Shown: positions 4,463-36,498, numbered from the stretch's first letter. The stretch is 37,105 nt of DNA from Candidatus Fervidifonticultor quintus (GCA_031459535.1 JAVKIJ010000023.1:1-37105), one strand, 5' to 3'. Numbers and translations are program-made. Notes: generated by a model from the sequence alone, not told the origin.

Positions 4463-5484
4463 TCCCGTCGCCTGCGATCGAGGGCGTCCACCCTGGCCTC
4501 AAGCGCCCGGAGCCGTTCTAGGGCCTCGGGCAGCAGCGCACCGGCGGCCTCGATGCGGAGCTCATCGCGGTGCGGCCGCGCCGGGAATCCGGAGACCACC
4601 AGCCCGGGGGCCACATCCTTGGTCACGCCGGCCCGGCCCAGCACCGTGGCGCCGGCCCCGATGGTCACGTGGTCGCGCACGCCGACCTGCCCGGCAAGCA
4701 CCGCACCTTCACCGATGGTGACGCTCCCGGAAATCCCGGTCAGCGCCGCAATAATGGTCCCCGGCCCCAGCACGACGTTGTGGGCGATCTGCACCAGGTT
4801 GTCGATCTTGCTGCCGCGGCCGATACGGGTCTCGCCGAGCGTGGCCCGGTCAATGGTCGCATTCGCCCCGATCTCCACGTCGTCTTCGATCACGACCCGG
4901 CCGAGATGCGGAATCTTCAGATGCACGCCGTCCTCGGTCGCGTATCCGAACCCGTCGCTGCCGATGACGGCGCCGCTGTGCACGATCACGCGGTCGCCGA
5001 GCGCGCAGTCGGCATACACCGTCACCAGCGGGTGGAGCACGCACTCGACGCCGATGCGGGTGCGGGCGCCGATCACGGTGCCGGCGCCGATCACGCTCCT
5101 CGCGCCGACCACCACGCCACCGGCCAGCACGGCGTGCGGCTCCACGGTGGCCTCTGGGTGCACCTCGGTGTCGCTGGCCACCACCGCGGTGGGGTGGATG
5201 CCGGGCGCAGGACGCCGGGGCGGCGCCAGCACGGCGAGCACCCGGGCGAACGCCGCCCTGGGATTGCGGGCCCGCAGGGCCGGCTTGCGCGTGTGCGGAA
5301 CCTGCGTGCCGACCAGCAGGGCGCCCGCGGGCGATGCTTCGGCCTCGGGGAGGCGTCGTGGGTCGGCGACCAGCACCAGGGCTCGAGGGTGGGCCTGGGC
5401 CAGCTCGGTGACGGCCTCGATCTCCAGTTCACCCTCGCCGGCCAGCTCGGCCCGCGCGTGCCGCGCGAGTTCCGCCAGCTTCAT
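4459..5484 (-). CDS. lpxD: UDP-3-O-(3-hydroxyacyl)glucosamine N-acyltransferase
   Basis: [27 protein letters not shown] and [12 protein letters not shown] motifs plus hexapeptide repeats. Confidence 0.97.
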
Positions 5485-5503
5485 CGCAACCCCCGTGAGC
5501 TGG

Positions 5504-5929
5504 TTACTTGAGTCGGTCGATGATCTCCTGGGTGATATCGACCGTTGTGCCGGGCCGGCTGTAGACCACCGGCCCCTTGGCGAGGACGCCCCGCAGGCGC
5601 TTTTCGCGCACCACCTGTTGGAGCGCCTGTTGAACTTCGCGGTTCAGCGTCTGTTCCAGTTCCGCGCGCAGCCCCTGCAGTTCCCTCAGGTACTGGAGCC
5701 GGCGGGCCTCCAGGTCCTCCTTGGACAGTTGACCGGCGAGGAGCTGGAGATCCGCGGTCATCGCGCGCTCCCGATCATCCAGTTCCTTCTGATAGCGCAG
5801 GGCCTTGGCACTTTCGGTCAGGATGCGGCGGTTGTCAACGAGACCGACCCGGCCGCCCACGCACCCCGAAGCCAGCACCACCGCCAGCACGAGGCCCGTG
5901 ATGGCCAACAATCCCGTTCCGTTCCTCAT
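5504..5929 (-). CDS. OmpH/Skp-family periplasmic chaperone, predicted lipoprotein
   Basis: Lipobox-like LASGC, VGLVD N-terminal strand, coiled coil, [11 protein letters not shown]-terminus. Confidence 0.8.
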
Positions 5930-23913: not shown

Positions 23914-25296
23914 TCAGGGGGTCGGCTTGGAGGCCGGCGACTCCGGTGCGTGCTGGCGCCGGATCACCCGGGCCGGCATGCCCACCGCCACGCCGCCCGG
24001 CGGCACGTCGCGCTTGACGACTGATCCGGCTCCGGTGTAGGCGCCCTCGCCGACCACCACGGGCGCGATGAGCATGGTGTCGCTGCCGATGAACGCCCGG
24101 TCTCCGATGACCGTCCGATGCTTGGCGCGGCCGTCGTAGTTGCAGGTAATGGTTCCTGCCCCGATGTTGACGTCGGCGCCCACGGTGGCGTCTCCAATGT
24201 AGCTCACGTGGTGCACCTTGGTGCGGTCGCCGATGGTGGAGTTCTTGATCTCCGCGTAGTTCCCGATCTCCACGAACCGGCCGATGCGCGCGCCGGGCCG
24301 CAGGTGGCTGTAGGGGCCGATGGTCGAGCCTTCGGCGACGGTGCTGCGTTCGATGGTGGAGGCCACGATGGTGACCCGATCGCCCACCTCGGCGTCGATG
24401 AGCCGGGCGTGCGGCCCGATGGTGCACTCCGCCCCGATGGTCGTCTGTCCCTCCAGCGCGGTGCCGGGATGGAGCACGGTGTCGCGGCCGACGCGGACGC
24501 CGGCGTGCACGTACGTCGCCTGCGGATCGATCACGGTCACGCCGGCCCGCATGAGCTCGTCCAGCAGCATGGCGCGCATGGCGGCCTCGGCGCGGGCCAG
24601 CTCGGCCCGGCTGTTGATCCCGGTGGCCTCCCCGCTGGAGGAGACGACCACCGCGGCCACGGTGTGCTCTTGCTGCAGCAGGGCGTGGATCGCATCGGTA
24701 AGATAGTACTCGCCCTGGGCATTGGCCGGTTCCAGGGTCCGCAGTGCGTCCCGCAGCGCACCGGCCTCGATGGCGTACATGCCCACGTTGACCTCACGGA
24801 TCTCGCGCTCCGCCGGAGACGCATCGGTCTCCTCCACGATGCGCCGGACATTGCCGCGTCCATCGCGCACGACGCGGCCGTACCCGGTGGGGTCATCGCG
24901 CAGGCCGGTGAGGATCGTGGCCGCGGCACCCTGCGCGCGGTGATGGGCCAGCAGGGTCTCAATGGTCTGCGCCCGCAGGAAGGGCACGTCGCCGTAGACG
25001 ATGAGCACCGTGCCAGCATGGTCCTCCAGCAGCGGCAGCGCCTGGGCGACGGCATGGCCCGTCCCCAGCTGTTCGGCCTGGACGGCGTAGCGAACGCCAT
25101 CGCCCAGGACGACGCGCACCTGCTCCGCGCCGTGGCCCACCACGACCACGGGCGACGCGATCCCGACCTGCGCCAGGGTGTCCAATACATAGGCGATCAT
25201 CGGCCGGCCACAGATCTTGTGGAGGACTTTGGGCAGCGCAGACGCCATCCGCTTGCCCTTGCCAGCGGCCAGCACGACCGCTTCGATCTCATGCAT
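23914..25296 (-). CDS. glmU: Bifunctional UDP-GlcNAc pyrophosphorylase / glucosamine-1-P acetyltransferase
   Basis: LAAGKGKRM, QLGTGHAV, YGDVP, EYYLTD, GAGTITCNYDG and hexapeptide repeats. Confidence 0.98.
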   Translation of the reverse strand: MHEIEAVVLAAGKGKRMASALPKVLHKICGRPMIAYVLDTLAQVGIASPVVVVGHGAEQVRVVLGDGVRYAVQAEQLGTGHAVAQALPLLEDHAGTVLIVYGDVPFLRAQTIETLLAHHRAQGAAATILTGLRDDPTGYGRVVRDGRGNVRRIVEETDASPAEREIREVNVGMYAIEAGALRDALRTLEPANAQGEYYLTDAIHALLQQEHTVAAVVVSSSGEATGINSRAELARAEAAMRAMLLDELMRAGVTVIDPQATYVHAGVRVGRDTVLHPGTALEGQTTIGAECTIGPHARLIDAEVGDRVTIVASTIERSTVAEGSTIGPYSHLRPGARIGRFVEIGNYAEIKNSTIGDRTKVHHVSYIGDATVGADVNIGAGTITCNYDGRAKHRTVIGDRAFIGSDTMLIAPVVVGEGAYTGAGSVVKRDVPPGGVAVGMPARVIRRQHAPESPASKPTP

Positions 25297-25411
25297 CGAC
25301 GGGCTCCCCCAGCGTTCCAGCCTGGGGATTTCTGTCCGGTATGAGGGATTCCCTCCGAAGATCGCCCGGTCTACCGGCCTCCCCTCATGGGAACATCACT
25401 CACAGGCCCGC

Positions 25412-26716
25412 ATGGTGCCCCGTCTCCGTGCACACCCGACCCTGCTCGGCCGCGTCACGGCCGCCAGCGCCCTCATTGCGGTCGCCTTCGCGCTGGCCCT
25501 CGGGTGGCTCACCAGCCGGCAGGTCACTGCCGCCGCAGAGCGAGAGGCGGTCGCATCAACCGCGCTGGCCGCGGACATGCTGCTTGGGCCCTACCTGGTC
25601 AAAGGCGACTTCATCTACCCCCTCTGGGCCGCGCGCCTCGACGATCTCGACCGATTGATCGGCCGCCATCTGAGGGGTCAGGGCATCATGCACGTGCGGC
25701 TGTGGAACCGGATCGGCACCGTCGTCTACTCCACCGATCGTCGCAGCGTCGGACTGCGATCTGCGGGAGCCCCGGAGCTGGCCGCAACGCTCGCTGGCCG
25801 CATTCTGGCCCGCATCGGCCCATCGCCGGCTGGCATTCAGGGAGAGGGCGGTGGGTCGGGGGACGTGCTGGCAGTGTTCGCCCCGGTGCGTCTGGCGGGC
25901 ATGACGCAGCCCGAGGGCGTCTACGAGGTGCACCGCGACCCCGCTCCGCTGCTGGCGCACGTGCGCGCCATACGGCTCCGCGTGTGGGTCCTGGTGCTGG
26001 TGGGCACCGCCGTTTTGTACGGCTCCCTGTTTGGCCTCGTGCGTCGCGCGTCCGACACCTTGCTGGCGCAGCAGCAGGCGCTGCGGCAGGCCTTCGAGGG
26101 TACCGTGCAGTCCCTGGCCGCCGCTGTGGATGCGAAGGATGCGTACACGGGCGACCACTCATCGCGGGTCTCCCGCTACGCGGAGGCCATCGCTTGCGCC
26201 CTGGGGCTCCCCCAGGAGGACATCGAGGTGGTCCGCCTGGCGAGCTACCTCCACGACCTGGGCAAGATCGGCATACCGGACCGTGTGCTGCTCAAGACCG
26301 GCGTGCTCGACGAGCGGGACTGGGTCGCGGTGCGCGGGCACTCACTGATCGGTTACGAGATCCTGCGGCCGGTGCCCATCGATGAACGCGTCAAGCTCGC
26401 CGTGCGGCACACCCACGAGCGCTGGGACGGCGCAGGCTATCCCGACGGCCTGCGTGGCGAGGCCATCCCGGTCCACGCGCGCATCCTCATGGTGGCCGAT
26501 ACTTTCGAAGCCATGACCTCGGACCGTCCTTATCGCACGGCCCTGGATGTGGCGGCGGCCGTCGCCGAACTGCGGCGCCATTGCGGCAGCCAATTCGATC
26601 CCCGTGTGGTCGAAGCGTTCCTCGCCACGCTGGAACAAGACCCCGTCGCTGTGCAAACCTCCATGTCAGCGACGCGGGCGCGCCGGTTCGCATCCGTGCA
26701 ACCCGCCGTCGAGTGA
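25412..26716 (+). CDS. Membrane-bound HD-GYP cyclic-dinucleotide phosphodiesterase with extracytoplasmic sensor domain
   Basis: Two TM helices flanking a sensor region; DAKDAYTGDHSSRV, LHDLGKIG, HERWDGAGYPDGL, ADTFEAMTSDRPY; start uncertain (ORF open from 25217). Confidence 0.9.
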   Translation: MVPRLRAHPTLLGRVTAASALIAVAFALALGWLTSRQVTAAAEREAVASTALAADMLLGPYLVKGDFIYPLWAARLDDLDRLIGRHLRGQGIMHVRLWNRIGTVVYSTDRRSVGLRSAGAPELAATLAGRILARIGPSPAGIQGEGGGSGDVLAVFAPVRLAGMTQPEGVYEVHRDPAPLLAHVRAIRLRVWVLVLVGTAVLYGSLFGLVRRASDTLLAQQQALRQAFEGTVQSLAAAVDAKDAYTGDHSSRVSRYAEAIACALGLPQEDIEVVRLASYLHDLGKIGIPDRVLLKTGVLDERDWVAVRGHSLIGYEILRPVPIDERVKLAVRHTHERWDGAGYPDGLRGEAIPVHARILMVADTFEAMTSDRPYRTALDVAAAVAELRRHCGSQFDPRVVEAFLATLEQDPVAVQTSMSATRARRFASVQPAVE

Positions 26717-26767: not shown

Positions 26768-26841
26768 TGGCTGCGGGGCCAGGACTCGAACCTGGATTTG
26801 GAGGTTCAAAGCCTCCCGGCATCCCCTTAGCCCACCCCGCA
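26768..26841 (-). tRNA. tRNA-Gln(TTG), 74 nt, encoded CCA
   Basis: Acceptor TGCGGGG/CCCCGCA, anticodon arm GGAGG-CTTTGAA-CCTCC, T arm CCAGG-TTCGAGT-CCTGG, 3' GCCA. Confidence 0.93.
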
Positions 26842-27211
26842 ACAATCCACGAAGCCCTGAACCCACCCGGCGATGCGGTGGTTCAACGCCGTGCTACGGC
26901 GGACAAGCATCTTGATAGTACCATAAGTAGGCCTCACCGGTGTTCTTCCGCTTTGGCGAAGGATTGTGCCTCTTGAAGCAGAGTCGTAGGCGACCAGGGG
27001 TCAGGTCGAGGTGCCGTCCCCAGAACCCGCAAGCGACCTCTGGCCTGGCACTCCGGTGGATGTAGAGCGCGTACGTGATATCAGACTCGTTTACTCCGCA
27101 GCAGCAACGGAGCCAGTTTCGAAAGTCCAGGAGCATATGCGGGTCCGTATTGCTATGACAGACCTGCCTGCGGAGGTCCACGGCCTTGAGCCTCTGCAGC
27201 GGCTTGCCCAT
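26827..27211 (-). pseudogene. Decayed tRNA-associated HTH/LAGLIDADG-like protein (internal deletion + frameshift)
   Basis: MGKPLQRLKAVDLRRQ..SNTDPHML..F..WL...YIH....FW...FKRHNPSPKRKNTGEAY; removing one T near 26925 continues YGTIKMLVRRSTALNHRIAGWVQGFVDCCGVG*; visibly lower GC. Confidence 0.65.
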
Positions 27212-27319
27212 CTGCCAACCGTGGGCGCACGCACGGCGCCCATTACGTGAATCGGCTGCCCCTGGGGTCCTGCAGGGGATGGGCAGTGCCTGTTGGAGCC
27301 TACGAGGTCGCGGCTCGGC

Positions 27320-27700
27320 CTATGCCAGCGCGATGCACTCGATCTCCACCAGCGCGTCCCGGGGCAGGCGCGACACCTGCACCGTCGAGCGCGCCGGCGG
27401 CAGTTCCCGGAAGACGCTCTGGTACTCCTCGTTCATCGCGCCGAAATCGTTGAGGTCCTTCAGGAAGACCGTGGTCTTCAACACCCGATCCATGGACGAG
27501 CCGGCGGCCTCAAGGACCGCGGCGAGGTTGGTCAGGACCTGGCGTGTCTGCGTCTTGATGTCGGCACCGACCATCTGACCCGTGGCCGGATCCAGCGCCA
27601 CCTGCCCTGAGAGGAACAGCAGACCGCCGGCGCGGATGGCCTGGGAATACGGACCGATCGGCAGCGGCGCGCGGTCGCTGCGTACGACATCCTTGGACAT
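27320..27700 (-). CDS. ridA: RidA family enamine/imine deaminase
   Basis: PIGPYSQA, LSGQ, VLKTTVFL, MNEEY, PARS and LVEIECIA motifs. Confidence 0.95.
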   Translation of the reverse strand: MSKDVVRSDRAPLPIGPYSQAIRAGGLLFLSGQVALDPATGQMVGADIKTQTRQVLTNLAAVLEAAGSSMDRVLKTTVFLKDLNDFGAMNEEYQSVFRELPPARSTVQVSRLPRDALVEIECIALA

Positions 27701-27755
27701 GGATCCCTCCCCTAAGCTGAGCGTGGCACGGACGCGGTCCGCCGCGCCCGCGCAC

Positions 27756-27992
27756 CTATGGAGTGTTTCCCAGGATCCGGCGCAACTCCTCGCGGAGTCT
27801 GTAGGGGGCTCGCTCGGCGCCGCACTTGGTCTGGATGATCCCGCGCAGCCGGACCTCGAAGTCCACCTGATGGCGGCACCCCAGGCAGCGGGCGATGTGA
27901 GCCTCGAGCTCCTGACAGGCCGCCTCGTCCAGCTCCCCGTCCAGATAGCCCCAGAGGCGCTGCAGCACTTCGTTGCAGTCCAACCCGCTCAT
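27756..27992 (-). CDS. Zinc-binding anti-sigma factor (ZAS, RsrA/RshA-like)
   Basis: C..V...L..YLDGEL and HIARCLGC (HxxxCxxC); coupled to the ECF sigma stop. Confidence 0.9.
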   Translation of the reverse strand: MSGLDCNEVLQRLWGYLDGELDEAACQELEAHIARCLGCRHQVDFEVRLRGIIQTKCGAERAPYRLREELRRILGNTP

Positions 27993-28609
27993 GCCCCAGA
28001 TGGCTGCGGTGGAGGGCTCTCTTTCCGGGATCCGGCCTCACCGTTGGCGTAGCCGGCCCGCTTGGCGTAGTCCCAGAGCAGCCGCTGCAGATGCCGGCGG
28101 CCTCGGTACAGACGAGACATAACCGTGCCGATAGGGACATCGAGGATCTCGGCGATCTCACGGTAGGAGAAATCCTGCAGGTCGGCCAGGATCACCGCGG
28201 CGCGGAACGGCTCGGGCACCTGGTCCAGGGCGGCCTTGACGTCGGCGTCCATGATCCGCGCCAGCAGGATCTCCTCGGGATCGCCGGCGCGGCGCAGTTC
28301 CTCGCTCTCCTGCGCCTTGGCGTAGAGGTAGAACTCACCCACATCGTCGTGATCCACCAGCTCGGGCGCGCGGGCAGACCGGCGGTAGCTGTCGATATAG
28401 GCATTCATGAGGATCTTGTAGAGCCAGGCCCTGGCGTTGGTCCCGGCCTGGAAGGTGCGGAACGACCGCCACGCCTTGAGGAACGTGTCCTGCACCAGGT
28501 CTTCGGCGGTCGTCCGGTTGCGGGTCAGGCGCAGCGCGCTTCCGTAGAGGCCGTCCAGGTGCTCGCTGACCAGGGCCTCGAAGCGCTCGCGCTCCTCGTT
28601 GGTCACCAT
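27989..28609 (-). CDS. ECF sigma factor, SigR/SigH-like
   Basis: AEDLVQDTFLKAW, FQAGTNARAWLYKILMN, FSYREIAEILDVPIGTVMSRLYRGR; start at 28609 or 28648. Confidence 0.92.
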   Translation of the reverse strand: MVTNEERERFEALVSEHLDGLYGSALRLTRNRTTAEDLVQDTFLKAWRSFRTFQAGTNARAWLYKILMNAYIDSYRRSARAPELVDHDDVGEFYLYAKAQESEELRRAGDPEEILLARIMDADVKAALDQVPEPFRAAVILADLQDFSYREIAEILDVPIGTVMSRLYRGRRHLQRLLWDYAKRAGYANGEAGSRKESPPPQPSGA

Positions 28610-28663
28610 CAACCCGGAATGATTGGCGCTCACCGCGCAGACACCCATGGGCACGCCCGCTGT

Positions 28664-28690
28664 AACGCCACGATGAGCCTGCTGATTCCC
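28664..28690 (-). promoter_or_regulatory. SigR/SigH-type promoter (GGAAT-N18-GTT), autoregulatory
   Basis: Minus strand GGGAAT cagcaggctcatcgtgg CGTT in the intergenic region upstream of the ECF sigma. Confidence 0.75.
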
Positions 28691-28713
28691 ATGATCCGCC
28701 TCGTTCCTGCCCG

Positions 28714-29145
28714 CTACCGGCGGGCCGCGGGCTGTCGCTCTCGCTGTGGGTACAGATCGGCCAGCGTCAGCCGGTCCAGCACCCCGGCTGCGGCGGCGTG
28801 GAGCGCGTGCCAGACCGGACGCAACCCACAGCCGTGGACGTGCTGGCAGTCCGGGTCGTCGGTCTCGACGCACCACCATGGCGACGTGGTACCTTCCAGC
28901 ACAGCGAAGGCCTCGCGCAGGCGGATCTCCGCCGGCGGCCGGGCCAGCGCATGTCCTCCGGTCGGGCCACGTTTGCTGGTGACCAGACCAGCCTGCCGGA
29001 GTGTGGCCATCAACTGGTTGAGATATGGTTCGGGCAGGCCCTGGCGCTGGGCAATAGCGTGGGTCTGTACCGGCCCCTGCCCGTAGTGGACGGCCAGTTC
29101 GATCAGAGCGCGAATCCCGTATTCGGCCCGCGTGGAGACCTTCAT
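28714..29145 (-). CDS. Rrf2 family regulator with three Cys (IscR-like Fe-S type)
   Basis: STRAEYGIRAL, YLNQLM..L..AGLV.SKRGPTGG, C-x7-C-x5-C, TLADL. Confidence 0.92.
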   Translation of the reverse strand: MKVSTRAEYGIRALIELAVHYGQGPVQTHAIAQRQGLPEPYLNQLMATLRQAGLVTSKRGPTGGHALARPPAEIRLREAFAVLEGTTSPWWCVETDDPDCQHVHGCGLRPVWHALHAAAAGVLDRLTLADLYPQRERQPAARR

Positions 29146-29558
29146 CCCTCCACCACCAGCTCCTCCTCGGTGATCTGGCCGTCCCTGATCCGGAATGCCC
29201 GGATCTGGGCGTCTTGCGCCGGCGCCTGCGCATCGCGCAGCGACACGATCACGTACGCGGCATCCGGGTACAGCGCCCGCGCCACGTCGGTCCGCGACGG
29301 GAACGCCGGCGACTGGGTGTGCGAATGATAGATGCCGAGCAGGTCCAACCCCTCGGCGTCCATGGCCTTGAAGAACGCCAGCTGCTCCTGGGGGTCGAGC
29401 CGGTACGTGTACGGGCTCCGATCAACGTTGTGGCCCCGGAACAATCGCTCCACCCGCCTGCCCCGGCCGGCCAGCAGGCCGCAGCACTCGTTGGGAAACT
29501 CCTCGCGCGCGTGTTCCACCATGGCCTCTGCCAGTGCCCTGGGCAATTCTAGACTCAT
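29142..29558 (-). CDS. JAMM/MPN+ (M67) metalloprotease, Mec-like CysO-cysteine peptidase
   Basis: PNECCGLL and YHSHT...PSRTD JAMM motif. Confidence 0.92.
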   Translation of the reverse strand: MSLELPRALAEAMVEHAREEFPNECCGLLAGRGRRVERLFRGHNVDRSPYTYRLDPQEQLAFFKAMDAEGLDLLGIYHSHTQSPAFPSRTDVARALYPDAAYVIVSLRDAQAPAQDAQIRAFRIRDGQITEEELVVEG

Positions 29559-29565
29559 TTACTCA

Positions 29566-29574
29566 ATAATAGCA
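29566..29574 (-). promoter_or_regulatory. Extended -10 promoter, probably leaderless, for JAMM-rrf2
   Basis: TGcTATTAT followed by 7 nt (tgagtaa) then ATG; no SD sequence. Confidence 0.6.
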
Positions 29575-29639
29575 CGTCGGGCGGACTGGCCAAAGAGGGC
29601 GGGAGCCGGCATGCCGGACGGGCCACGCGGCCGGGTGGG

Positions 29640-30605
29640 TCACCCGGCCTCCGGGATTGCCCGCCACAGGGGGGTTGAGAGGTATCGCTCGCCCGAGTCC
29701 GGGAAGATCACGACCACGACCCCCTCGCGCAGATCGCGCGCCACGGCCAGGGCCGCGGCCGTGGCGGCGCCCGACGACGTGCCGGCAAAGATCCCTTCCT
29801 CGACCGCCAGCCGCCGGGCGGTGGCATAGGCGTCGTCGGTACGTACCCTGACCGTGTGGTGGGCGACCGAAGGATCGTAGATGCCGGGTGTGACCGCCGT
29901 GGGGAGATGCTTCAAACCCTCGATGCCGTGAAACGCGTCATCGGGCTCGACGGCGACGATCTGGATGGCAGCGTCGGCCTCGCGCAGCCGCCGTCCCACC
30001 CCCACCAGCGTCCCAGTCGTGCCCACTCCGATCACCACATGGGTGAGTCGCCCGTGCGTCTGCGCCAGGATCTCGGGCCCCGTCCCGTCGTAGTGGGCGC
30101 GCCAGTTGCTCGGGTTGTTGTACTGGTTGAGATAGAGGTACTGGCCGGGGTGCGCCTCGGCCAGGGCTTGCGCCATCCGCATGGCCCCGTCGGAGCCCTC
30201 CAGGGGATCGGACAGGATGAGCCGGGCGCCGTACGCGCGCATGGTGCTCTTGCGCTCTTCACTGGCGTTGGCAGGCACGACGAGTGTCACGCGGTAGCCC
30301 CGGACCGCGCCGATCATCGCATAGGCGATCCCTGCGTTTCCGCTGGAGGAGTCCAACAGGACGGGCGGCGCGCCACCGGACCCCGGCAGCAGGCCGGCGC
30401 GCTCGGCATCCTCGATCATCCGCAGCACCGGTCGATCCTTCACCGACCCACCCGGGTTGAACCCTTCGAGCTTCGCGTAGACCTCGACCGATGGGCTCAG
30501 ACCGGAGGCGACCCGGCGGAGGCGTACCAGGGGCGTGTGCCCCACGCGGTCGAGCAGGCTCTCGCCGATCGGCCTGGGTGATGGCGGTGCGAACCGGTAG
30601 GCCAT
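29640..30605 (-). CDS. cysM: PLP-dependent cysteine synthase family protein (CysM / O-phosphoserine sulfhydrylase-like)
   Basis: VGHTPLV, KLEGFNPGGSVKDR, SSGNAG, NQYNN, GVGTTGT and FPDSGERYLST; ATG 30605 overlaps the upstream TGA. Confidence 0.88.
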   Translation of the reverse strand: MAYRFAPPSPRPIGESLLDRVGHTPLVRLRRVASGLSPSVEVYAKLEGFNPGGSVKDRPVLRMIEDAERAGLLPGSGGAPPVLLDSSSGNAGIAYAMIGAVRGYRVTLVVPANASEERKSTMRAYGARLILSDPLEGSDGAMRMAQALAEAHPGQYLYLNQYNNPSNWRAHYDGTGPEILAQTHGRLTHVVIGVGTTGTLVGVGRRLREADAAIQIVAVEPDDAFHGIEGLKHLPTAVTPGIYDPSVAHHTVRVRTDDAYATARRLAVEEGIFAGTSSGAATAAALAVARDLREGVVVVIFPDSGERYLSTPLWRAIPEAG

Positions 30606-31426
30606 CAATCGTCGAACAGGACCGTGGACTCGGGATAGGCCCGGACGCGGTGGGCTGCCAGGCGCGACCGGATCAAGTCGTCGAGTTGGGCCTGTTTGGC
30701 GCCCAGGGAGACGCGGCTTTGGAGCAGCGCCAGATCCACATTGATGCGCAGGGCCCGGTTGTGCACGATGAACCGGCTGATGCCGCTGGGCAGCTTGACG
30801 GGCAGGTGCGCGATGGCGCGGATCTCGGCCTTCCGCAGCCTGGGAAACAGCACCAGGGCGCCGACGCGGCCGTACTCGCGGCGCAGCACGTCGAGCCCGT
30901 TGGGTTGGACACGATAGAACGGCGCGCGCCGCTGGTAGGCCGAGACCACGCCGGCGATGGCCGCCACGCGCCCCGCCAGGTCCGGAGGCGCGGCGAGGCC
31001 GCGCGCGTCGGCATCGGTGACCACGCCGCAGGCGAGGGTCCCGTCGTCGAGCCCGGCGCGCACGGCCTCGGCCGAAAGCCGCCGCCACAGCGGGCCCGGC
31101 GTGGGTAGCACGTCCTCGACCAGCAGGTGGGCCCAGACCTCCAGGATTACCCAGGGCTGATCGGCATCGACCACCTGCACGACCTGATCGGGATAGCCCG
31201 CCTGGGCCAGCGCGGTGACGCGGTTGGCGCCGTCGAGCACCACGTAGGACCCGCCGTCGAGCGGGGCTGCGACCGGAGGGTTTCGAAGGACGCCTTCGTC
31301 GGCAAACGAGCGGAGCAGGCGCTCCACCCTGGCGGGATCCGACGCCTCATGGGGCAACAGGGCCGCGGAGGGGATCACCCGCAGGTCTGGCAACCGGCCG
31401 GCCGCGGGCACCCGTGATCCCGTCAT
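30605..31426 (-). CDS. ParB/Srx-fold protein, SerK/SbnI-like putative free-serine kinase
   Basis: LLPHE..DP.RVERL......GVLRNPPV......YVVLDGANRVTAL...VQ...W pattern resembles the SbnI/SerK catalytic domain; no HTH seen. Confidence 0.65.
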   Translation of the reverse strand: MTGSRVPAAGRLPDLRVIPSAALLPHEASDPARVERLLRSFADEGVLRNPPVAAPLDGGSYVVLDGANRVTALAQAGYPDQVVQVVDADQPWVILEVWAHLLVEDVLPTPGPLWRRLSAEAVRAGLDDGTLACGVVTDADARGLAAPPDLAGRVAAIAGVVSAYQRRAPFYRVQPNGLDVLRREYGRVGALVLFPRLRKAEIRAIAHLPVKLPSGISRFIVHNRALRINVDLALLQSRVSLGAKQAQLDDLIRSRLAAHRVRAYPESTVLFDD

Positions 31427-31443
31427 CGCCCGAGAGCCAACCG

Positions 31444-31737
31444 TCACCGGAACGCCGATCGAAGGGCGCCTCCGGCCATGGCGGGGATGATCGCGACTTC
31501 GTCCATCGGCCCCACCGGGGTCTGTAACCCACCAGAGTCGCGGATCTCGATCTGGTTGACAAAGACCGTCACATATGCTCGCAGGGCGCCCGCCTCGTCG
31601 AAGAGGTAGCTGCGCAGACCCGGGTGCTGCGCGTCCAGCCGGTGGAGCAACTCGCCTACCGTGGAGGCGCCGATCTCGACCCGAGCCTGTCCGCCTGTGA
31701 GACGGCGCAGCGGTGAGGGAATCAAGACGATCGCCAC
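31444..31737 (-). CDS. MoaD/ThiS/CysO-family ubiquitin-like sulfur carrier with C-terminal extension
   Basis: IPSPLRRLTGG, TVGELL..L...HPGL, VFVN..EIR...GL.T, AIIPAMAGG followed by ALRSAFR. Confidence 0.9.
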   Translation of the reverse strand: MAIVLIPSPLRRLTGGQARVEIGASTVGELLHRLDAQHPGLRSYLFDEAGALRAYVTVFVNQIEIRDSGGLQTPVGPMDEVAIIPAMAGGALRSAFR

Positions 31738-31743
31738 AACCGA

Positions 31744-32463
31744 TCACGCTCCTGCGGGCGCAGCGGCCAACATGCGCCGCACCGCCTCGAGGCTCGTCCG
31801 CTCCAGTCGGAGACGGAAGTGTGCCGCGGCCCGGTCGGCACAGACCCGGCGTACGGCACGCAGGTCCACGTGCCGGCCGAGCAGGTGCACCATGGACGTG
31901 ACCGGCCGGCCCAGCCCGCAGGGGTTGATGAGCGCGAAGCCGTCGAGATCGGTGCTGACGTTGAGCGCGAACCCATGCATGGTGACGTGTCGCTTGATGG
32001 CGACCCCTAACGCAGCAATCTTGGCCTCGCCCACCCAGACCCCTGGATACCCCGGCCGACGGCTCGCCTGCAGCCCAAACGCCGCCAGCGTGTCGATGAC
32101 CACCGCCTCAAGGGTGCGGACATAGGCGCCCGCATCGTCGCCGAACCGGCGCAGGTCGAAGATGGGATAGCCCACGAGCTGACCCGGACCGTGATACGTC
32201 GCGCTGCCTCCGCGCTCGACTTCGAAGACCTCGATCCCCCGGGCAGCAAGATCTGCACGGGAGACCAGCAGATGTTCGCGAGCCGCGCTGCGGCCGAGCG
32301 TCACCACCGGCCGGTGTTCGAGCAGCAGCAGCACGTCCGGGATCAGGCCTTCCTGCCGGGCCCGCAGCAACTCCCGCTGCAGCGCCCAGATCTCAGCGTA
32401 CGCCACCGGCCCGCGCTCAAGATCGAGCAACCAGCCGTCCGCGGGCTCAACGGTCGTGTTCAT
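31744..32463 (-). CDS. lipB: Lipoyl(octanoyl) transferase
   Basis: LLEHRPVVTLGR, RGGSATYHGPGQLVGYPI, KIAALG, HGFALNV and INPCG motifs. Confidence 0.96.
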   Translation of the reverse strand: MNTTVEPADGWLLDLERGPVAYAEIWALQRELLRARQEGLIPDVLLLLEHRPVVTLGRSAAREHLLVSRADLAARGIEVFEVERGGSATYHGPGQLVGYPIFDLRRFGDDAGAYVRTLEAVVIDTLAAFGLQASRRPGYPGVWVGEAKIAALGVAIKRHVTMHGFALNVSTDLDGFALINPCGLGRPVTSMVHLLGRHVDLRAVRRVCADRAAAHFRLRLERTSLEAVRRMLAAAPAGA

Positions 32464-32488
32464 CGGGTATTCTGTTCATCGGGTATTC
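32457..32488. repeat. Perfect 16-bp tandem duplication across lipB start / ABC ATPase stop
   Basis: TGTTCATCGGGTATTC at 32457-32472 and again at 32473-32488. Confidence 0.95.
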
Positions 32489-33686
32489 GATGAAACCGCG
32501 GCGGCCCGGCCGACATTCCGTCCCAGGTCTCGACCGCTTCGCCATCCTTGAAACAGGCGAGCAGGTGCCCGGGGGCCAGGCGCACCGCTACCCGGGCGCC
32601 GCGCTCCAGTCGGGCCGTGTGGGGCTGTCGGCAGTGCACCACGCGGCCCGAGGGCATCCGAACCCGGTAGATGATGTCGGCGCCGACGAACAGCCGGTCT
32701 ACAACCGTCCCCTGGCCGTCTGGCGAAGGGCTGATGTGGAGATCATCCGGCCGCACCAGGATCTCCAGCCGGCCGTCTGGCCCGCCGCCTTGCGGGGCAG
32801 CCACGCGTTGAGGCAGTAGCCCGGCTTCGGTGAGCAAGCCGTCGGCTGTGGCCGCCGCCGCCAGGAAGTCGGCCCGGCCGAAGAAGGCCGCTATGGCCTG
32901 CGTCTTCGGCGCGTGGAAGATCGCCTCGGGCGTGTCGATCTGCTCGAGCCGGCCCTGGCGGATCAAGGCCACCCGGTCTCCCAATAGCAGGGCCTCCTCC
33001 TGATCGTGGGTGACGAAGACGGCACTGGTCCCCGTGGCCCCCAGGATGGCGCGAACATCTTCGCGCACCTGCGCACGCAGGTCGGCGTCGAGGTTGGAGA
33101 AGGGCTCGTCCAGCAACACCGCAAACGGCCGAGGCGCCAGCGCCCGAGCCAGCGCTACCCGCTGCTGTTGCCCGCCGGACAACTCGTGCGGGTATCGTGA
33201 GGCGTAGCCCTCCATGCCCACGAGACGCAGCACCTCAGCCGTGCGAGGCCTGCGCTCGGCCGCCAGCACACAATGGAGCCCGAACGCCACGTTCTCCGCC
33301 ACGGTCAGATGCGGGAAGAGCGTGTAGTCTTGAAAGACCATGCCGACCCCGCGGGCCTCGGGCGGCACCCACGCGGCGGGACCCGCGACCTGGCGGCCCG
33401 CGATCCACACCTCGCCGGCATCCGGTCGCTCGAAGCCAGCGATCAGCCGAAGCACCGTGGTCTTGCCGCTCCCGCTGGGACCCACCAACGACAGGACCTC
33501 GCCGCGCCCAACGTCCAGTGAGAGGTCTGCGACCGCCGGCGCCTCACCCCCCGCGAAGTGTCGCCACACCTGGCGCAGGCTGATCACGGGCGCGGCAGCC
33601 GCCGGACGTGGCTGCAGGGGCTTTGAGCCGCCACCGGCGCCGACCTCGTCCGTACAGGAAGCGTACCAGAGGGGGGTATTCATCAC
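32460..33686 (-). CDS. Fe3+ ABC transporter ATP-binding protein (FbpC/FutC-like)
   Basis: GPSGSGKT, LSGGQQQRVALARA, LLDEPFSNLD, VTHDQEEA, C-terminal TOBE-like region. Confidence 0.92.
   Translation of the reverse strand: MMNTPLWYASCTDEVGAGGGSKPLQPRPAAAAPVISLRQVWRHFAGGEAPAVADLSLDVGRGEVLSLVGPSGSGKTTVLRLIAGFERPDAGEVWIAGRQVAGPAAWVPPEARGVGMVFQDYTLFPHLTVAENVAFGLHCVLAAERRPRTAEVLRLVGMEGYASRYPHELSGGQQQRVALARALAPRPFAVLLDEPFSNLDADLRAQVREDVRAILGATGTSAVFVTHDQEEALLLGDRVALIRQGRLEQIDTPEAIFHAPKTQAIAAFFGRADFLAAAATADGLLTEAGLLPQRVAAPQGGGPDGRLEILVRPDDLHISPSPDGQGTVVDRLFVGADIIYRVRMPSGRVVHCRQPHTARLERGARVAVRLAPGHLLACFKDGEAVETWDGMSAGPPRFHRIPDEQNTR
32494..32520 (-). promoter_or_regulatory. Second SigR/SigH-type promoter upstream of lipB
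   Basis: Minus strand CGGAAT gtcggccgggccgccgcg GTT (exactly N18), about 30 nt before the lipB ATG. Confidence 0.6.
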
Positions 33687-35401
33687 AAGGCGACGGGACG
33701 GCCCCGATCGCGCACGCGCGCCGAGGCCCGGATCATCACGAAAACGGGCAACAGCCCGATCCCCACGATGGCCAGCGCGGCGGTCGAAGCCTGCGCCAGT
33801 CGCTCATCCGACGCCAGTTGGTAGACCCGGATCGCCAGCGTGTCGAAGTTGAACGGCCGCAGGATCAAGGTGGCCGGCAGTTCCTTCAGCGTGTCCACGA
33901 AGACCAGCAGCGCGGCGGCCAGCAGGCTGCCGCTCATCAGGGGCGCGTGCACCCGCAGGAGCGTGCTGCCGGGGCCGTGGCCGAGCGTGCGGGCCGCCTC
34001 GTCCATCGCCGGCCGGATCCGCGACAGGGCGGCCTCCACGGTGTTGAACGAGACCGCGAGGAATCGGACCAGATATGCGAAGATCAGCACCACGATCGTG
34101 CCGCTCAAGAGCAGCCCGGTGGGCCGGCCGAAGGCCCCGCGCGCCCACGCATCGACGGCGTTGTCCAGGCCAGCAGCCGGCAGCATCACGCCCACCGCGA
34201 TCAGCGATCCCGGCAGCGCGTAGCCCAGCGTCGCGAGGCGCGCGGCGGCGCGCACGGCCGGGCCTGCAGCCAGCCGGACGCCGTAGGCCAGCACCGCTGC
34301 GGCGGCCACGGTGACCAGCGCGGCCAGGGCTGCGAGTCCGAGGCTGCGGCCGGCCAGTGCCACGAAGCGCTGGCCCAAGACCGGATCGCCAGCCGTGGTG
34401 GCCATGCGGAGCAAGGCGGCTGCGGGGATGAGGAATCCGACGACGGAGGGCGCAAGACAGCAGGCAAGCGCCGCCAGGCCGCGGGCACCCACGAGCGGGA
34501 TGTCGGCTGCCTGGGGGGCACGCACCGCGGTCTGGTGGAACCGTCGCCCGCCCCGCAGCGCCCGTTCGGCGACCAGGAGCACCACCACGAACATCAACAG
34601 GCCCGAGGCCAGCTTGGCCGCGCCCAGGGGCGAGCCCAGACCGAACCACGCGAGGTAGATGCCGGTGGTGAACGTCGGCACCTCGAAGTGCCGGACGGCG
34701 CCGAAATCTGCCAGCACCTCCATGAGCGCGAGCGTCAGCCCGGCCACGATTCCAGGCCGTGCCAGCGGCACCGCCACCCGGACGAAGGTGAGCCATGGGC
34801 CCAAGCCAAGGGTTCGACTCACTTCGACGGCGGAGGCCGACTGTTCGAGAAACGCCGCCCGCGCCAGCATGTAGACGTAGGGGTAGAAGGCGAACGTCAT
34901 GACGCCCACGGCGCCGCCCAGAGAACGGATCTCGGGAAACCAGTAGTCACCGCGCCCCCACCCAAACCAGTCCCGCAGGGCGGTCTGGACCGGCCCGGTG
35001 AACTGCAGCAGGTCAGCATACACGTACGCCAGCAAGTACGCTGGCACCGACAGCGGGAGGACCAGCAGCCACGTGCACAGGGCCCTGCCCGGAAACCGGT
35101 AGGCGGTAACCAGCCACGCCGTTCCCACCCCGATGACGAGCACGCCAAGGCCGGCCCCCAGCAGCAGCGCCACGGTGCTGATCACGTACTGCGGCAGGGT
35201 CAGGGCAACCAGCCGCGCCCATGCCCCGTCCGTGGGCGCCAGCAGGCTCGCGGCCACTGTCAGCACCGGCAACGCCAGCAGCACGGCGAGGGTCACGCTG
35301 CCAGCCCCCAGGGCCCAGCGGCCTCCCGCCTGTGGGAACCGGATGCTGACGCCTCGGGAGGTGACGGCGCCAGGGTCCCACACCATCGTGGTTAGCGCCA
35401 C
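33683..35401 (-). CDS. Fe3+ ABC transporter permease (FbpB/FutB-like)
   Basis: Duplicated permease with EAARTLG-like loops, YPYVY, MEVLADFG and LKELPATLILRPFNFDTLA; start 35401 or 35386. Confidence 0.92.
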   Translation of the reverse strand: MALTTMVWDPGAVTSRGVSIRFPQAGGRWALGAGSVTLAVLLALPVLTVAASLLAPTDGAWARLVALTLPQYVISTVALLLGAGLGVLVIGVGTAWLVTAYRFPGRALCTWLLVLPLSVPAYLLAYVYADLLQFTGPVQTALRDWFGWGRGDYWFPEIRSLGGAVGVMTFAFYPYVYMLARAAFLEQSASAVEVSRTLGLGPWLTFVRVAVPLARPGIVAGLTLALMEVLADFGAVRHFEVPTFTTGIYLAWFGLGSPLGAAKLASGLLMFVVVLLVAERALRGGRRFHQTAVRAPQAADIPLVGARGLAALACCLAPSVVGFLIPAAALLRMATTAGDPVLGQRFVALAGRSLGLAALAALVTVAAAAVLAYGVRLAAGPAVRAAARLATLGYALPGSLIAVGVMLPAAGLDNAVDAWARGAFGRPTGLLLSGTIVVLIFAYLVRFLAVSFNTVEAALSRIRPAMDEAARTLGHGPGSTLLRVHAPLMSGSLLAAALLVFVDTLKELPATLILRPFNFDTLAIRVYQLASDERLAQASTAALAIVGIGLLPVFVMIRASARVRDRGRPVAL

Positions 35402-36432
35402 CCCGCCTGGATCATGATGCGCAGCGCCAGCGCGTGGTTGGCGCCGTAGACGGCAGCGTTGACGGCATCGGCCACAAACGACCGCAGCCCGAGCACCGTG
35501 GGATCCCGAGGGATGCCTGCCACCACCGGGTACTCGTAGTTGCCCCGCGCGAAGATGCGCTGGGCGTCGTCCGAGGCGAGGTACTCCAGGAACGCCAGCG
35601 CGGCCTCGCGATTGGGCGCGTGAACCAGAACCCCGGCGCCGCTGATGTTGATGTGGACGCCCCGCTCGCCCGGCCTCTGGTTTGGATAGAAGAGCGCCAC
35701 CTTCTGGGCGATGTCGCGCTCTTCGGGCTGCGCCGAGTTGAGCAGGCGCGCGTAGTAGTAGTGGTTGACGATAGCCACATCACCGCCTCCGGCGGCGACG
35801 GCCTTGATCTGATCGGTATCTCCGCCCTGGGGCGGACGGGCGAAGTTCGCCACGACCCCTCGCGCCCAGCGCTCAGCCGCGGCTTCACCATGCGCCGCGA
35901 TGAGCGCGCCGACCAGGGACTGGTTGTAGACGTGACTCGAACTGCGCGCGAGCAACCTCCCCCGCCACTTGGCATCCGTCAGGGCCTCGTACGTGGAGAG
36001 ATCTGTGGGTCCCACCCGTGCCCGGGAGTACGCGAGCACCCGCGCCCGAATCGAGAACCCGTACCAGTGACCGTTCGGTTCGCGCACGTTGGCCGGGATT
36101 CGGGCTTCCAGGGTGCGGGAGGTCACCCGCTGGAAGAGCCCGGCCTCCTGCGCGCGCCACAGGCGACCGGCATCGGTCGTCAGGAGGACATCGGCCGGGC
36201 TGTTCCGGCCCTCGGCCTTGATCCGCTCGATGAGCTGGTCGGCGTCACCCTCGACGAGGTGGACTTTGATGCCCGTCCTGCTCGCAAACCCGTCGTAGAG
36301 CAGTTCGTCGCTGTCATAGTGCCGAGCGGAGTAGAGATTCAGCACCCGCACAGGTCCGGCCCCACTCCGCGCCACCGGCACGGCCGCCACGAGCGCAACC
36401 ACTACGGCCAGGAAGCTGAAGCGGACGACCAC
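35392..36432 (-). CDS. Fe3+ ABC transporter substrate-binding protein (FutA/FbpA-like)
   Basis: LYSARHY, EGRNSPADV, GGDTDQIKA, NHYYYAR and NYEYP; GTG 36432 with GAAGGAGG RBS. Confidence 0.92.
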   Translation of the reverse strand: MVVRFSFLAVVVALVAAVPVARSGAGPVRVLNLYSARHYDSDELLYDGFASRTGIKVHLVEGDADQLIERIKAEGRNSPADVLLTTDAGRLWRAQEAGLFQRVTSRTLEARIPANVREPNGHWYGFSIRARVLAYSRARVGPTDLSTYEALTDAKWRGRLLARSSSHVYNQSLVGALIAAHGEAAAERWARGVVANFARPPQGGDTDQIKAVAAGGGDVAIVNHYYYARLLNSAQPEERDIAQKVALFYPNQRPGERGVHINISGAGVLVHAPNREAALAFLEYLASDDAQRIFARGNYEYPVVAGIPRDPTVLGLRSFVADAVNAAVYGANHALALRIMIQAGWR

Positions 36433-36479
36433 ACTGCGACCCTCCTTCCGATGTGTGCACCAGGCGAGGCGCCCACCCA

Positions 36480-36498
36480 CTGTCTTAGGCTATCCTAA
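36480..36498. promoter_or_regulatory. DtxR/IdeR-type iron box
   Basis: Minus strand TTAGGATAGCCTAAGACAG, 14/19 to consensus TTAGGTTAGCCTAACCTAA; weaker copy nearby at about 36503-36522. Confidence 0.7.

Follow-up and report, generated by a model that had tools for sequence, protein, structure and literature searches.

What does a ParB-fold protein do between the genes for a sulfur carrier and a cysteine synthase? This arrangement is found in a 37,105-nucleotide (nt) stretch of DNA from Candidatus Fervidifonticultor quintus (GCA_031459535.1 JAVKIJ010000023.1:1-37105; hereafter the window, G+C 70%), where six tightly packed genes on the minus strand read lipB, cysO, the ParB-fold gene, cysM, mec and rrf2. 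On the combined evidence of sequence comparison and a structural model, the 273-amino-acid (aa) ParB-fold protein most likely phosphorylates free serine, and we refer to it below as the kinase, by its predicted activity. The genes form a real, conserved operon, very probably for a serine-kinase-fed, carrier-dependent cysteine pathway. We regard it as likely that the operon by itself suffices to lead from L-serine to L-cysteine, in a route in which O-phospho-L-serine (OPS) made by the kinase would be used by CysM together with CysO-thiocarboxylate. All parts have known relatives: SbnI and SerK, the CysO–CysM–Mec–MoeZ set of Mycobacterium tuberculosis, and CymR-type Rrf2 regulators.

An initial annotation of the window had read a sulfur carrier, a ParB-fold protein, a CysM-like enzyme and a JAMM protease here, and all four lie at the positions it claimed, on the minus strand (Table 1). 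The translational coupling that it described between the kinase gene and cysM is also present: the kinase stop overlaps the cysM ATG as TGATG (30607-30603). The other junctions are similarly tight. The lipB stop is followed by a 6-nt gap to the cysO start, 17 nt separate cysO from the kinase gene, and the mec stop overlaps the rrf2 start as ATGA; the cysM–mec gap is 81 nt long and AT-rich. The string extends beyond the earlier-noted coordinates on both sides, with lipB upstream and rrf2 downstream. The first gene of the string, lipB, is context and probably not part of the pathway. The same gene order recurs in related genomes, which excludes a chance juxtaposition.

Table 1. Features of the cysteine operon and of the neighbouring region (window coordinates)
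Feature	Position	Strand	Evidence
lipB (octanoyltransferase)	31744..32463	-	Pfam LplA-B_cat 2.6e-51; NCBIfam LipB 169.5 bits, cut-off 155
cysO, ThiS/MoaD-fold sulfur-carrier precursor	31444..31737	-	97 aa, GTG start; Pfam ThiS 1.9e-13
SbnI/SerK-like ParB-fold protein (P0001), predicted free L-serine kinase	30605..31426	-	273 aa; NCBIfam SbnI 1.2e-14
cysM, fold-type II pyridoxal phosphate (PLP) beta-replacement enzyme	29640..30605	-	321 aa; PALP 2.4e-69
mec, JAMM metalloprotease	29142..29558	-	138 aa; Prok-JAB 3.2e-27
Rrf2-family regulator (CymR/IscR-like)	28714..29145	-	Pfam Rrf2 9.1e-38
Promoter-like site TTGGCC-16-TATTAT with TG	29566..29593	-	sigma-70 consensus match only
tRNA gene	26771-26841	-	58.3 bits
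HD-GYP-type cyclic di-GMP phosphodiesterase-like protein	25217-26716	+	NosR-family model 135 bits, under cut-off

A Pfam scan gave no match for the kinase, including no ParBc, helix-turn-helix (HTH) or dimerization domain. The NCBIfam model of SbnI aligned with residues 15-269 (model positions 8-250 of 254; 54.3 bits), and that of archaeal SerK with the N-terminal part (9.4e-5, 21.7 bits). A single-sequence phmmer search of the PDB returned only three SbnI entries, at about 1e-10 (SbnI 5.3e-11). We collected 213 homologues, of which 120 were listed, and aligned 87 for a family profile. Searched against the PDB, this profile matched SbnI over essentially the full length (1.6e-29, 1.9e-24 and 7.1e-24) and SerK at 1.3e-13 (17-241), with SerK and its Pyrococcus furiosus homologue ranging from 2.6e-14 to 2.6e-12. 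The next match was ParB, at an E value of 0.098.

Structure prediction gave the same answer. An AlphaFold2 model built on the family alignment (predicted local distance difference test 94.1, predicted template modelling (TM) score 0.90) has a two-domain architecture, with an N-terminal ParB/sulfiredoxin fold followed by a C-terminal domain of the SbnI/SerK type. In a Foldseek search of the PDB, ranks 1-9 were all SbnI or SerK, over 234-270 columns and with target-normalized TM-scores (TMt) of 0.68-0.79. SbnI matched over 261-270 aligned columns (query-normalized TM-score, TMq, 0.68-0.74) and SerK over 234-243 columns (E 7.5e-14 to 2.6e-12). Noc, ParB and sulfiredoxin (Srx) matched over only ~80 N-terminal columns, at E 1.8e-4 or worse. 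The structural comparison proposed in the initial annotation for 30605-31426 thus favours SbnI and SerK over both domains. The ranking rules out sulfiredoxin or a DNA-binding ParB as the best structural match, and an identity as a ParB DNA-binding CTPase clamp was likewise rejected, given the lack of ParBc and HTH matches in Pfam and a structural match of ~80 residues.

The catalytic glutamate and the DGxxR nucleotide motif expected of a serine kinase are in place. The initial annotation had pointed to a PHE glutamate and a DGANR motif, which we located in LLPHEASD and VLDGANRV. E27 aligns with Glu30 of SerK and E20 of SbnI; Glu30 is the residue altered in PDB entries titled E30A and E30Q, and its catalytic role is taken from these titles. 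D65-G66-A67-N68-R69 aligns with DGHHR of SerK and DGVHR of SbnI, and W98 and the (T/S)R motif at R218 also align with both. Residues H26, E27, D30, R33, N49-P51, L64-R69, Q84, W98, H100 and Y164 are invariant in all 87 aligned sequences, as are R172, P213, G215, R218, R224, R262, Y264, E266 and D272. Since Q84, Y164, R172 and R224 are common to the family and SbnI and unmatched in SerK, the family is nearer to the ATP-dependent SbnI, and the kinase is therefore probably ATP-dependent.

SbnI (Staphylococcus aureus and S. pseudintermedius; PDB 5UJE, 5UJD and 6NR6) is an ATP-dependent free L-serine kinase that feeds OPS to SbnA. The HE motif, DGxHR (D58 of SbnI corresponding to D65), the WxH motif and PxG(I/V)(T/S)RF...R.L all align between the two proteins, and E20 and D58 of SbnI are reportedly essential, as a 2018 paper in JBC is said to have found. 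Both are encoded beside an OPS-consuming fold-type II PLP enzyme, predicted here; the partner in the window is a cysteine synthase with a sulfur carrier, whereas that of SbnI is the siderophore enzyme SbnA. SerK (Thermococcus kodakarensis TK0378; PDB 5X0B and others) is an ADP-dependent free serine kinase of cysteine synthesis that has the same fold and aligning DGHHR and TRH motifs. Unlike the window kinase, it is archaeal, ADP-dependent and encoded outside any operon with cysO, cysM or mec. The proposed logic is the same in both: serine is activated for cysteine synthesis by phosphorylation and not by acetylation, as stated for SerK by Makino et al. 2016, who also report that clear SerK homologues were not found in bacteria. 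With ParB, Noc and sulfiredoxin, the kinase shares the nucleotide-binding fold of the N-terminal ~80 residues and a GxxRxxA-like motif, G66-A67-N68-R69-V70-T71-A72. At this motif Srx has FGGCHR; unlike Srx, the ParB-fold protein has no Cys within G66-A72.

The neighbouring genes supply the remaining parts of a carrier-dependent pathway. Pfam ThiS aligns with CysO residues 4-90, and the SAMP1 and MoaD models match under their cut-offs. The C-terminus reads AMAGG followed by a 7-residue tail, ALRSAFR; since the GG is followed by these seven residues, CysO would require processing. The same holds widely: of the 36 CysO orthologues listed, 34 have a reading frame that runs 1-24 codons beyond the GG or into a fused PLP enzyme, one ends one residue after the GG and one ends exactly at it. 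CysM scores 347.3 bits with TIGR01136 (cysKM), over the cut-off of 344.15, and 369.6 bits with TIGR01138 (cysM), under the cut-off of 394.2. Its PLP Schiff-base lysine, K56 (SVKDR), is invariant in 42/42 CysM orthologues. Where enteric CysM carries Arg210-Arg211, the window enzyme carries Lys232-His233; among the 42 kinase-linked CysM orthologues, position 232 is K in 40 and R in 2, and position 233 is H in all 42. The Lys232 column presumably corresponds to Arg220 in M. tuberculosis CysM. In Mec the metal motif HSH-x7-S-x2-D is intact in the translation, and the desampylase model scores 100.2 bits, under its cut-off of 130. CysM is predicted to be an O-phosphoserine sulfhydrylase using CysO-thiocarboxylate, and Mec is predicted to trim the CysO precursor and to free cysteine from the CysO-Cys adduct. 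The best specific model for the Rrf2 regulator is CymR (100 bits, under the cut-off of 195).

In M. tuberculosis, mec-cysO-cysM (Rv1334-1336) with MoeZ synthesizes cysteine from OPS and CysO-thiocarboxylate, and OPS comes from SerA/SerC. The roles of Mec and of an S–N acyl shift are said to have been described by Burns et al. in 2005. Like that system, the window has a single operon for a ThiS-fold GG carrier, a PLP enzyme of the CysM type and a JAMM protease, with a MoeZ-like E1 carrying a rhodanese domain elsewhere in the genome and a SigH/RsrA-like pair adjoining. Use of O-phosphoserine and CysO by M. tuberculosis CysM is stated in PMC11361707. The differences are that a kinase lies between cysO and cysM here, whereas the M. 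tuberculosis operon has none, and that CysO here has a C-terminal tail or, in relatives, is fused to another protein. The MoeZ-like E1 is the single ThiF-family E1 of the window's own genome (G000:C68:6118-7371; MoeZ model 401.9 bits, cut-off 647) and has a C-terminal rhodanese match. That genome has 12 PALP-family genes, of which tblastn identifies the window cysM as the sole CysK/CysM-type gene, with no CBS-like paralogue (CBS, cystathionine beta-synthase).

The initial annotation had called for a survey of homologue neighbourhoods. We confirmed kinase relatives in 413 genome stretches of a species-representative collection, kept the best 80 loci and scanned the six-frame open reading frames (ORFs) of their flanks with the window proteins, separating the closest (L001-L044) from the 36 distant loci (L045-L080; record titles Chloroflexota, Eisenbacteria and Dormibacterota). 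Genes of the cys set flank the kinase in 58/80 loci, so that homologues are indeed linked to cysM, cysO and mec. A cysM orthologue lies directly downstream in 41/80 (38/44 closest, 3/36 distant) and a CysK/CBS-type PLP gene at most 700 nt upstream in 29/80 (22/44 and 7/36, respectively); one or the other is present in 48/80 (39/44 and 9/36). The corresponding counts are 50/80 for mec (42/44 and 8/36) and 36/80 for cysO (29/44 and 7/36), and Rrf2 matches near the kinase and LipB matches upstream of it occur in 42/80 and 34/80 loci. In many close loci the upstream gene is a second PLP enzyme between cysO and the kinase, cystathionine-beta-synthase-like (TIGR01137 457.5 bits). Around the distant loci, clustering of flanking ORFs and Pfam searches of 10 of them found no conserved partner other than the CBS-like PLP gene; 6 of these 10 had no Pfam match and may be spurious high-GC frames.

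In one distant locus, from Dormibacterota, the gene immediately upstream of the kinase homologue encodes a HAD-family hydrolase (L080:4877-5935, plus strand; PF00702 4.7e-9), which could be a phosphoserine phosphatase partner.

Gene fusions provide a second kind of linkage. Among the 120 homologues listed, 6, from JGI, ENA and Logan assemblies, are in-frame CysO–GG–linker–kinase proteins of 371-376 aa. Pfam analysis of 10 of the longer forms among the top 150 cluster representatives identified 4 full 2-hydroxyacid-dehydrogenase–kinase fusions, 3 N-terminally truncated versions of these, 1 JAMM–kinase fusion and 2 forms without a Pfam match in the extension. The JAMM fusion (P0155, 438 aa) has its Prok-JAB domain (4.9e-23) N-terminal to the kinase domain. 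Fusions to a protein resembling 3-phosphoglycerate dehydrogenase (PGDH) are P0122, P0214, P0228, P0255 and P0258; in P0122 (589 aa) the N-terminal 310 residues match PGDH best (367.6 bits, positions 1-309 of 525) and the C-terminal part matches SbnI at 3.4e-29. Such PGDH-like–kinase fusions appear to be common in one Chloroflexota class, in which open frames of 561-641 codons contain the kinase (G139, G176, G207, G187, G218, G190, G151, G238, G157, G220 and G178). CysO is itself fused in-frame after the GG to the full-length CBS-like enzyme in relatives such as L011, L026, L031, L032, L033, L037, L038, L043 and L064, at ~4100-5600 of each locus, just upstream of the kinase and with 456-487 codons beyond the aligned CysO. 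Regardless of any cys neighbourhood, the dehydrogenase fusions link the family with phosphoserine metabolism. Those with the carrier link it with the CysO system and imply that the JAMM protease must cut after the GG. In the CysO fusions, prokaryotes offer a clear example of a ubiquitin-like carrier whose release requires a JAMM protease. An exhaustive profile search sized the family at 1,930 cluster representatives at E 0.001 or better, 1,222 at 1e-10 or better and 459 at 1e-30.

Next, the distribution of the kinase was compared with that of cysE, serB and serC. The phylum of the window, with relatives labelled Armatimonadota or Sysuimicrobiota (CSP1-3) in public records, has 94 species genomes in the collection. 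The kinase is present in 88/94, and in 53 of the 54 genomes with completeness of 90% or more and contamination of 5% or less. By contrast, cysE (TIGR01172) exceeds its cut-off in 1/94 (G010). No genome of the 94 passes the cut-off for serB (TIGR00338), a narrow model that passes in 8/14 control genomes, or for serC (TIGR01364; matches at most 36 bits), a narrow model that passes in 4/14 controls. Two of the genomes counted, G016 and G024, carry an unpublished flag; leaving them out gives 86/92 for the kinase, 1/92 for cysE and 0/92 for both serB and serC. The window's own genome, at 88.85% completeness, has no cysE (best match 31 bits) and no full-length PGDH. Its class-V aminotransferases, SufS-like and PhnW-like ones, include no recognizable SerC, and its dehydrogenases are glyoxylate-reductase-like, a result that is no proof of absence. 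Serine hydroxymethyltransferase (SHMT) is present (523 bits).

A second lineage sample showed the same tendency; it comprised 151 genomes, each with completeness of 90% or more, of the class to which locus L045 belongs. There, cysE exceeds its cut-off in 15/54 kinase-bearing and 57/97 kinase-less genomes (odds ratio 0.27, Fisher p 3e-4; the test ignores relatedness, and p is overstated), and in 0/11 genomes with the kinase in frames of ~560-640 codons. The initial annotation had suggested that both CysE/O-acetylserine and SerA/SerC are bypassed. The first part agrees with the near absence of cysE from the phylum, where the route most likely replaces the CysE/O-acetylserine pathway; for the second, the support is indirect, coming from serC and serB models that many control genomes also fail. 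According to PMC11604079, the genomes of three of the phylum's five families encode autotrophy, by way of the reductive glycine, Wood-Ljungdahl or Calvin pathway; the first of these would be consistent with glycine as the source of serine.

What was observed is the order of the genes, their homology, the fold, the conservation of motifs, the fusions and the phyletic distribution; from these we infer the catalytic steps, the phosphate donor and the specificity of CysM for OPS and CysO as follows. Serine, probably formed from glycine by SHMT, would be phosphorylated by the kinase to OPS; if serine comes from glycine and not from phosphoserine, OPS must come from the kinase. CysM would eliminate phosphate from OPS to give a PLP-aminoacrylate. 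The JAMM protease would first cut the C-terminal tail off the CysO precursor, exposing the GG, and CysO would then be charged as a thiocarboxylate by the single MoeZ-type E1 with its rhodanese domain, encoded elsewhere. CysO-COSH would add to the aminoacrylate on CysM and, after an S-to-N acyl shift, the JAMM protease would hydrolyse the CysO-Cys adduct to release cysteine. The Rrf2 protein would regulate the unit. The central proposal of the initial annotation, a kinase that supplies OPS directly to a carrier-dependent sulfhydrylase, is thus supported by fold, profile, linkage and the cysE pattern.

Transcripts were sought in public runs. Metatranscriptome X4 holds 68% of the sampled operon words, and its contigs match the window at 95-100% identity. 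They cover 29110-29559 (mec with the mec/rrf2 junction), 29664-30054 and 30766-31171, and bridge the kinase/cysM junction (30268-30662) and the cysO/lipB junction (31550-32323). These contigs are compatible with transcription and are no proof of it. Runs X5 and X6 contained only 0.05 of the sampled words and support no statement on habitat. Joints in DNA run X1, with sides of only 20-21 letters, were rejected and treated as other organisms or repeats.

Several observations weigh against a dedicated serine kinase that feeds this pathway. The equivalog cut-offs are far from reached, at 350 bits for SbnI (NF033589) and 380 bits for SerK (NF053625), and identity is only 19-24% to SbnI (Foldseek alignment) and 14-16% to SerK; for these two reasons, sequence comparison places the protein in a distinct clade of the superfamily, as an orthologue of neither. 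SbnI is, by its NCBIfam name, also a DNA- and heme-binding regulator (bifunctional, regulator and synthase). CysM is nearer to the enteric, O-acetylserine-using CysM (1.4e-76) than to the OPS-using CysM of M. tuberculosis (1.2e-61). In 22/80 loci, all among the distant L050-L080, the scanned flanks contain no cys gene, and five close loci (L005, L006, L009, L015 and L018) read lipB-kinase-mec-rrf2, with no cysM and no cysO. The assemblies of two of these, L005 and L009, carry a second kinase copy: one follows a CBS-like PLP gene (L074) and the other lies downstream of cysO and a CBS-like PLP gene (L019). This arrangement suggests that the CBS-like enzyme can replace CysM. Genomes of the L045 class that have both the kinase and cysE (15/54) also count against a strict replacement. 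Because the serC and serB models are narrow (4/14 and 8/14 controls) and the window's genome has several class-V aminotransferases and short 2-hydroxyacid dehydrogenases, a non-canonical phosphoserine pathway could operate. Finally, the depth of X4 is low and even across the whole 6.6 kb, so DNA carry-over is possible.

Three other explanations were weighed in this light. The kinase might interconvert serine and OPS without feeding CysM as its main role, either in assimilation (serine to OPS, 3-phosphohydroxypyruvate and 3-phosphoglycerate) or in reverse, as a substitute for SerB. The five PGDH-like–kinase fusions point to the SerA step, serB is over its cut-off in none of the 94 genomes, and the 22 loci without cys neighbours fit as well. 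Makino et al. 2016 link SerK to serine assimilation and place serK beside 3-phosphoglycerate dehydrogenase homologues, and GapMind 2026 proposes that a different, serine kinase-like family, DUF1015, replaces serB. GapMind 2026, however, gives an unfavourable equilibrium constant of about 4e-4 for the reverse reaction, and no canonical SerC was recognized that would make or use OPS. In the window's clade the kinase gene is coupled to cysM and kept between cysO and cysM or mec, and some relatives have it joined to CysO or to a JAMM domain in one protein. We consider this explanation improbable. A related possibility is that the kinase does make OPS, but that CysM uses sulfide or thiosulfate, with CysO and Mec serving another sulfur task or a stress-time route. 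CysM is most like enteric CysM, a user of sulfide or thiosulfate, the conserved Lys232-His233 pair (K 40, R 2, H 42 of 42) stands at the enteric Arg210-Arg211, and the CBS-like enzyme fused to CysO in some relatives is perhaps the true CysO partner. The window's genome, however, has only one CysM-type gene by tblastn and no CBS-like paralogue, the kinase is conserved together with cysO, cysM and mec, and the pairing of an OPS-dependent CysM with CysO is established in M. tuberculosis (PMC11361707). We consider this explanation quite improbable.

The most improbable of the three, in our estimate, is that the ParB-fold protein acts on CysO, for example by phosphorylating its C-terminal carboxylate, or on another acceptor, or that it is a regulator or scaffold. 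The CysO–kinase fusions (6/120 listed) and the JAMM–kinase fusion could mean contact with the carrier. Sulfiredoxin, whose target is a side chain of a protein, and ParB, which binds DNA, belong to the same fold family, and SbnI is named as a regulator as well as a synthase. Yet the two-domain architecture fits serine kinases, and the Srx and ParB matches end after ~80 residues. Pfam finds neither HTH nor ParBc, the operon already has an Rrf2 regulator, and a MoeZ-type E1 with a rhodanese domain is available for CysO activation. The PGDH-like fusions and the many genomes without a nearby cysO also fit a small-molecule kinase. We therefore retain a free serine kinase feeding CysM as the preferred explanation.

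The initial annotation knew of no characterized case of this combination, and our literature search agrees: no paper found describes CysO, CysM and a serine kinase together. The main texts of two genomics papers on the phylum (PMC11604079 and PMC11962464; supplements not covered) do not mention the operon pairing. They contain no serine kinase, cysM, cysK or sulfur carrier, and the word cysteine occurs 0 times in PMC11604079 and once in PMC11962464. A 2025 survey of the ParB-CTPase fold treats SerK and SbnI only as isolated ATP-binding examples. The expectation that automated annotation would call the protein only 'ParB domain' held in part. Public records use 'hypothetical protein' or 'ParB N-terminal domain-containing protein', but for 2 of the 120 relatives listed JGI already has the name 'L-serine kinase (ATP) / ParB family transcriptional regulator'.

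Many uncultured lineages are scored as having a gap in cysteine synthesis because they lack cysE. If the kinase assignment is true, this gap closes for the phylum (kinase in 88/94) and probably for many Chloroflexota, and predictions of cysteine auxotrophy there would therefore be wrong. Free serine kinases would grow from two characterized examples to a bacterial family of 1,222 representatives (E 1e-10 or better). The assignment would also explain the supply of OPS to CysO/CysM-type pathways where serine comes from glycine, and the operon would constitute a compact, portable serine-to-cysteine module.

A further carrier was observed elsewhere in the window's genome. A threonine-synthase-like gene (G000:C95:768-2357; TIGR00260 268 bits), encoding an N-terminal Cys4 zinc ribbon, is directly followed by a second CysO-like carrier gene, whose product is 47% identical to the window CysO and ends in GG plus CDTVLS. 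Together the two resemble a homocysteine synthase that depends on a thiocarboxylate and takes O-phosphohomoserine as its substrate, presumably of the MetM/MetO-like kind, and would parallel the phospho-activated cysteine route. A broader generalization seems to us evenly balanced between true and false: that the whole phylum and many Chloroflexota have replaced CysE/O-acetylserine by phospho-activation and carrier-borne sulfur, with kinases making OPS from glycine-derived serine, a ubiquitin-like CysO precursor cut by JAMM, and the ThrC-like/second-CysO pair making homocysteine from O-phosphohomoserine.

Within the operon, the promoter-like site before mec is the sole sigma-70-like match in 27000-33000 (shuffled mean 0.3), and mec-rrf2 may have their own promoter. 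No riboswitch was found before the operon, Rfam finding only the tRNA, and a terminator scan gave two weak matches, with no excess over shuffled sequence. On the other side of lipB, upstream of it, 32460-36480 (minus strand) encodes an ATP-binding cassette (ABC) importer comprising an ATPase, a double-length permease and a binding protein, with weak likeness to aminoethylphosphonate, ferric, thiamine and sulfate systems, all under cut-offs.

Directly downstream of rrf2, 27320-28606 (minus strand) encodes a SigH/SigR-like extracytoplasmic function sigma factor (TIGR02947 195.9 bits), an RsrA-type zinc anti-sigma factor (75.6 bits, over the cut-off of 62.5) and a RidA enamine/imine deaminase (164 bits). 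By sequence similarity, these genes are assigned to a thiol-stress regulon adjoining the cysteine operon, a proximity also seen in actinomycetes. RidA could quench aminoacrylate released by CysM.

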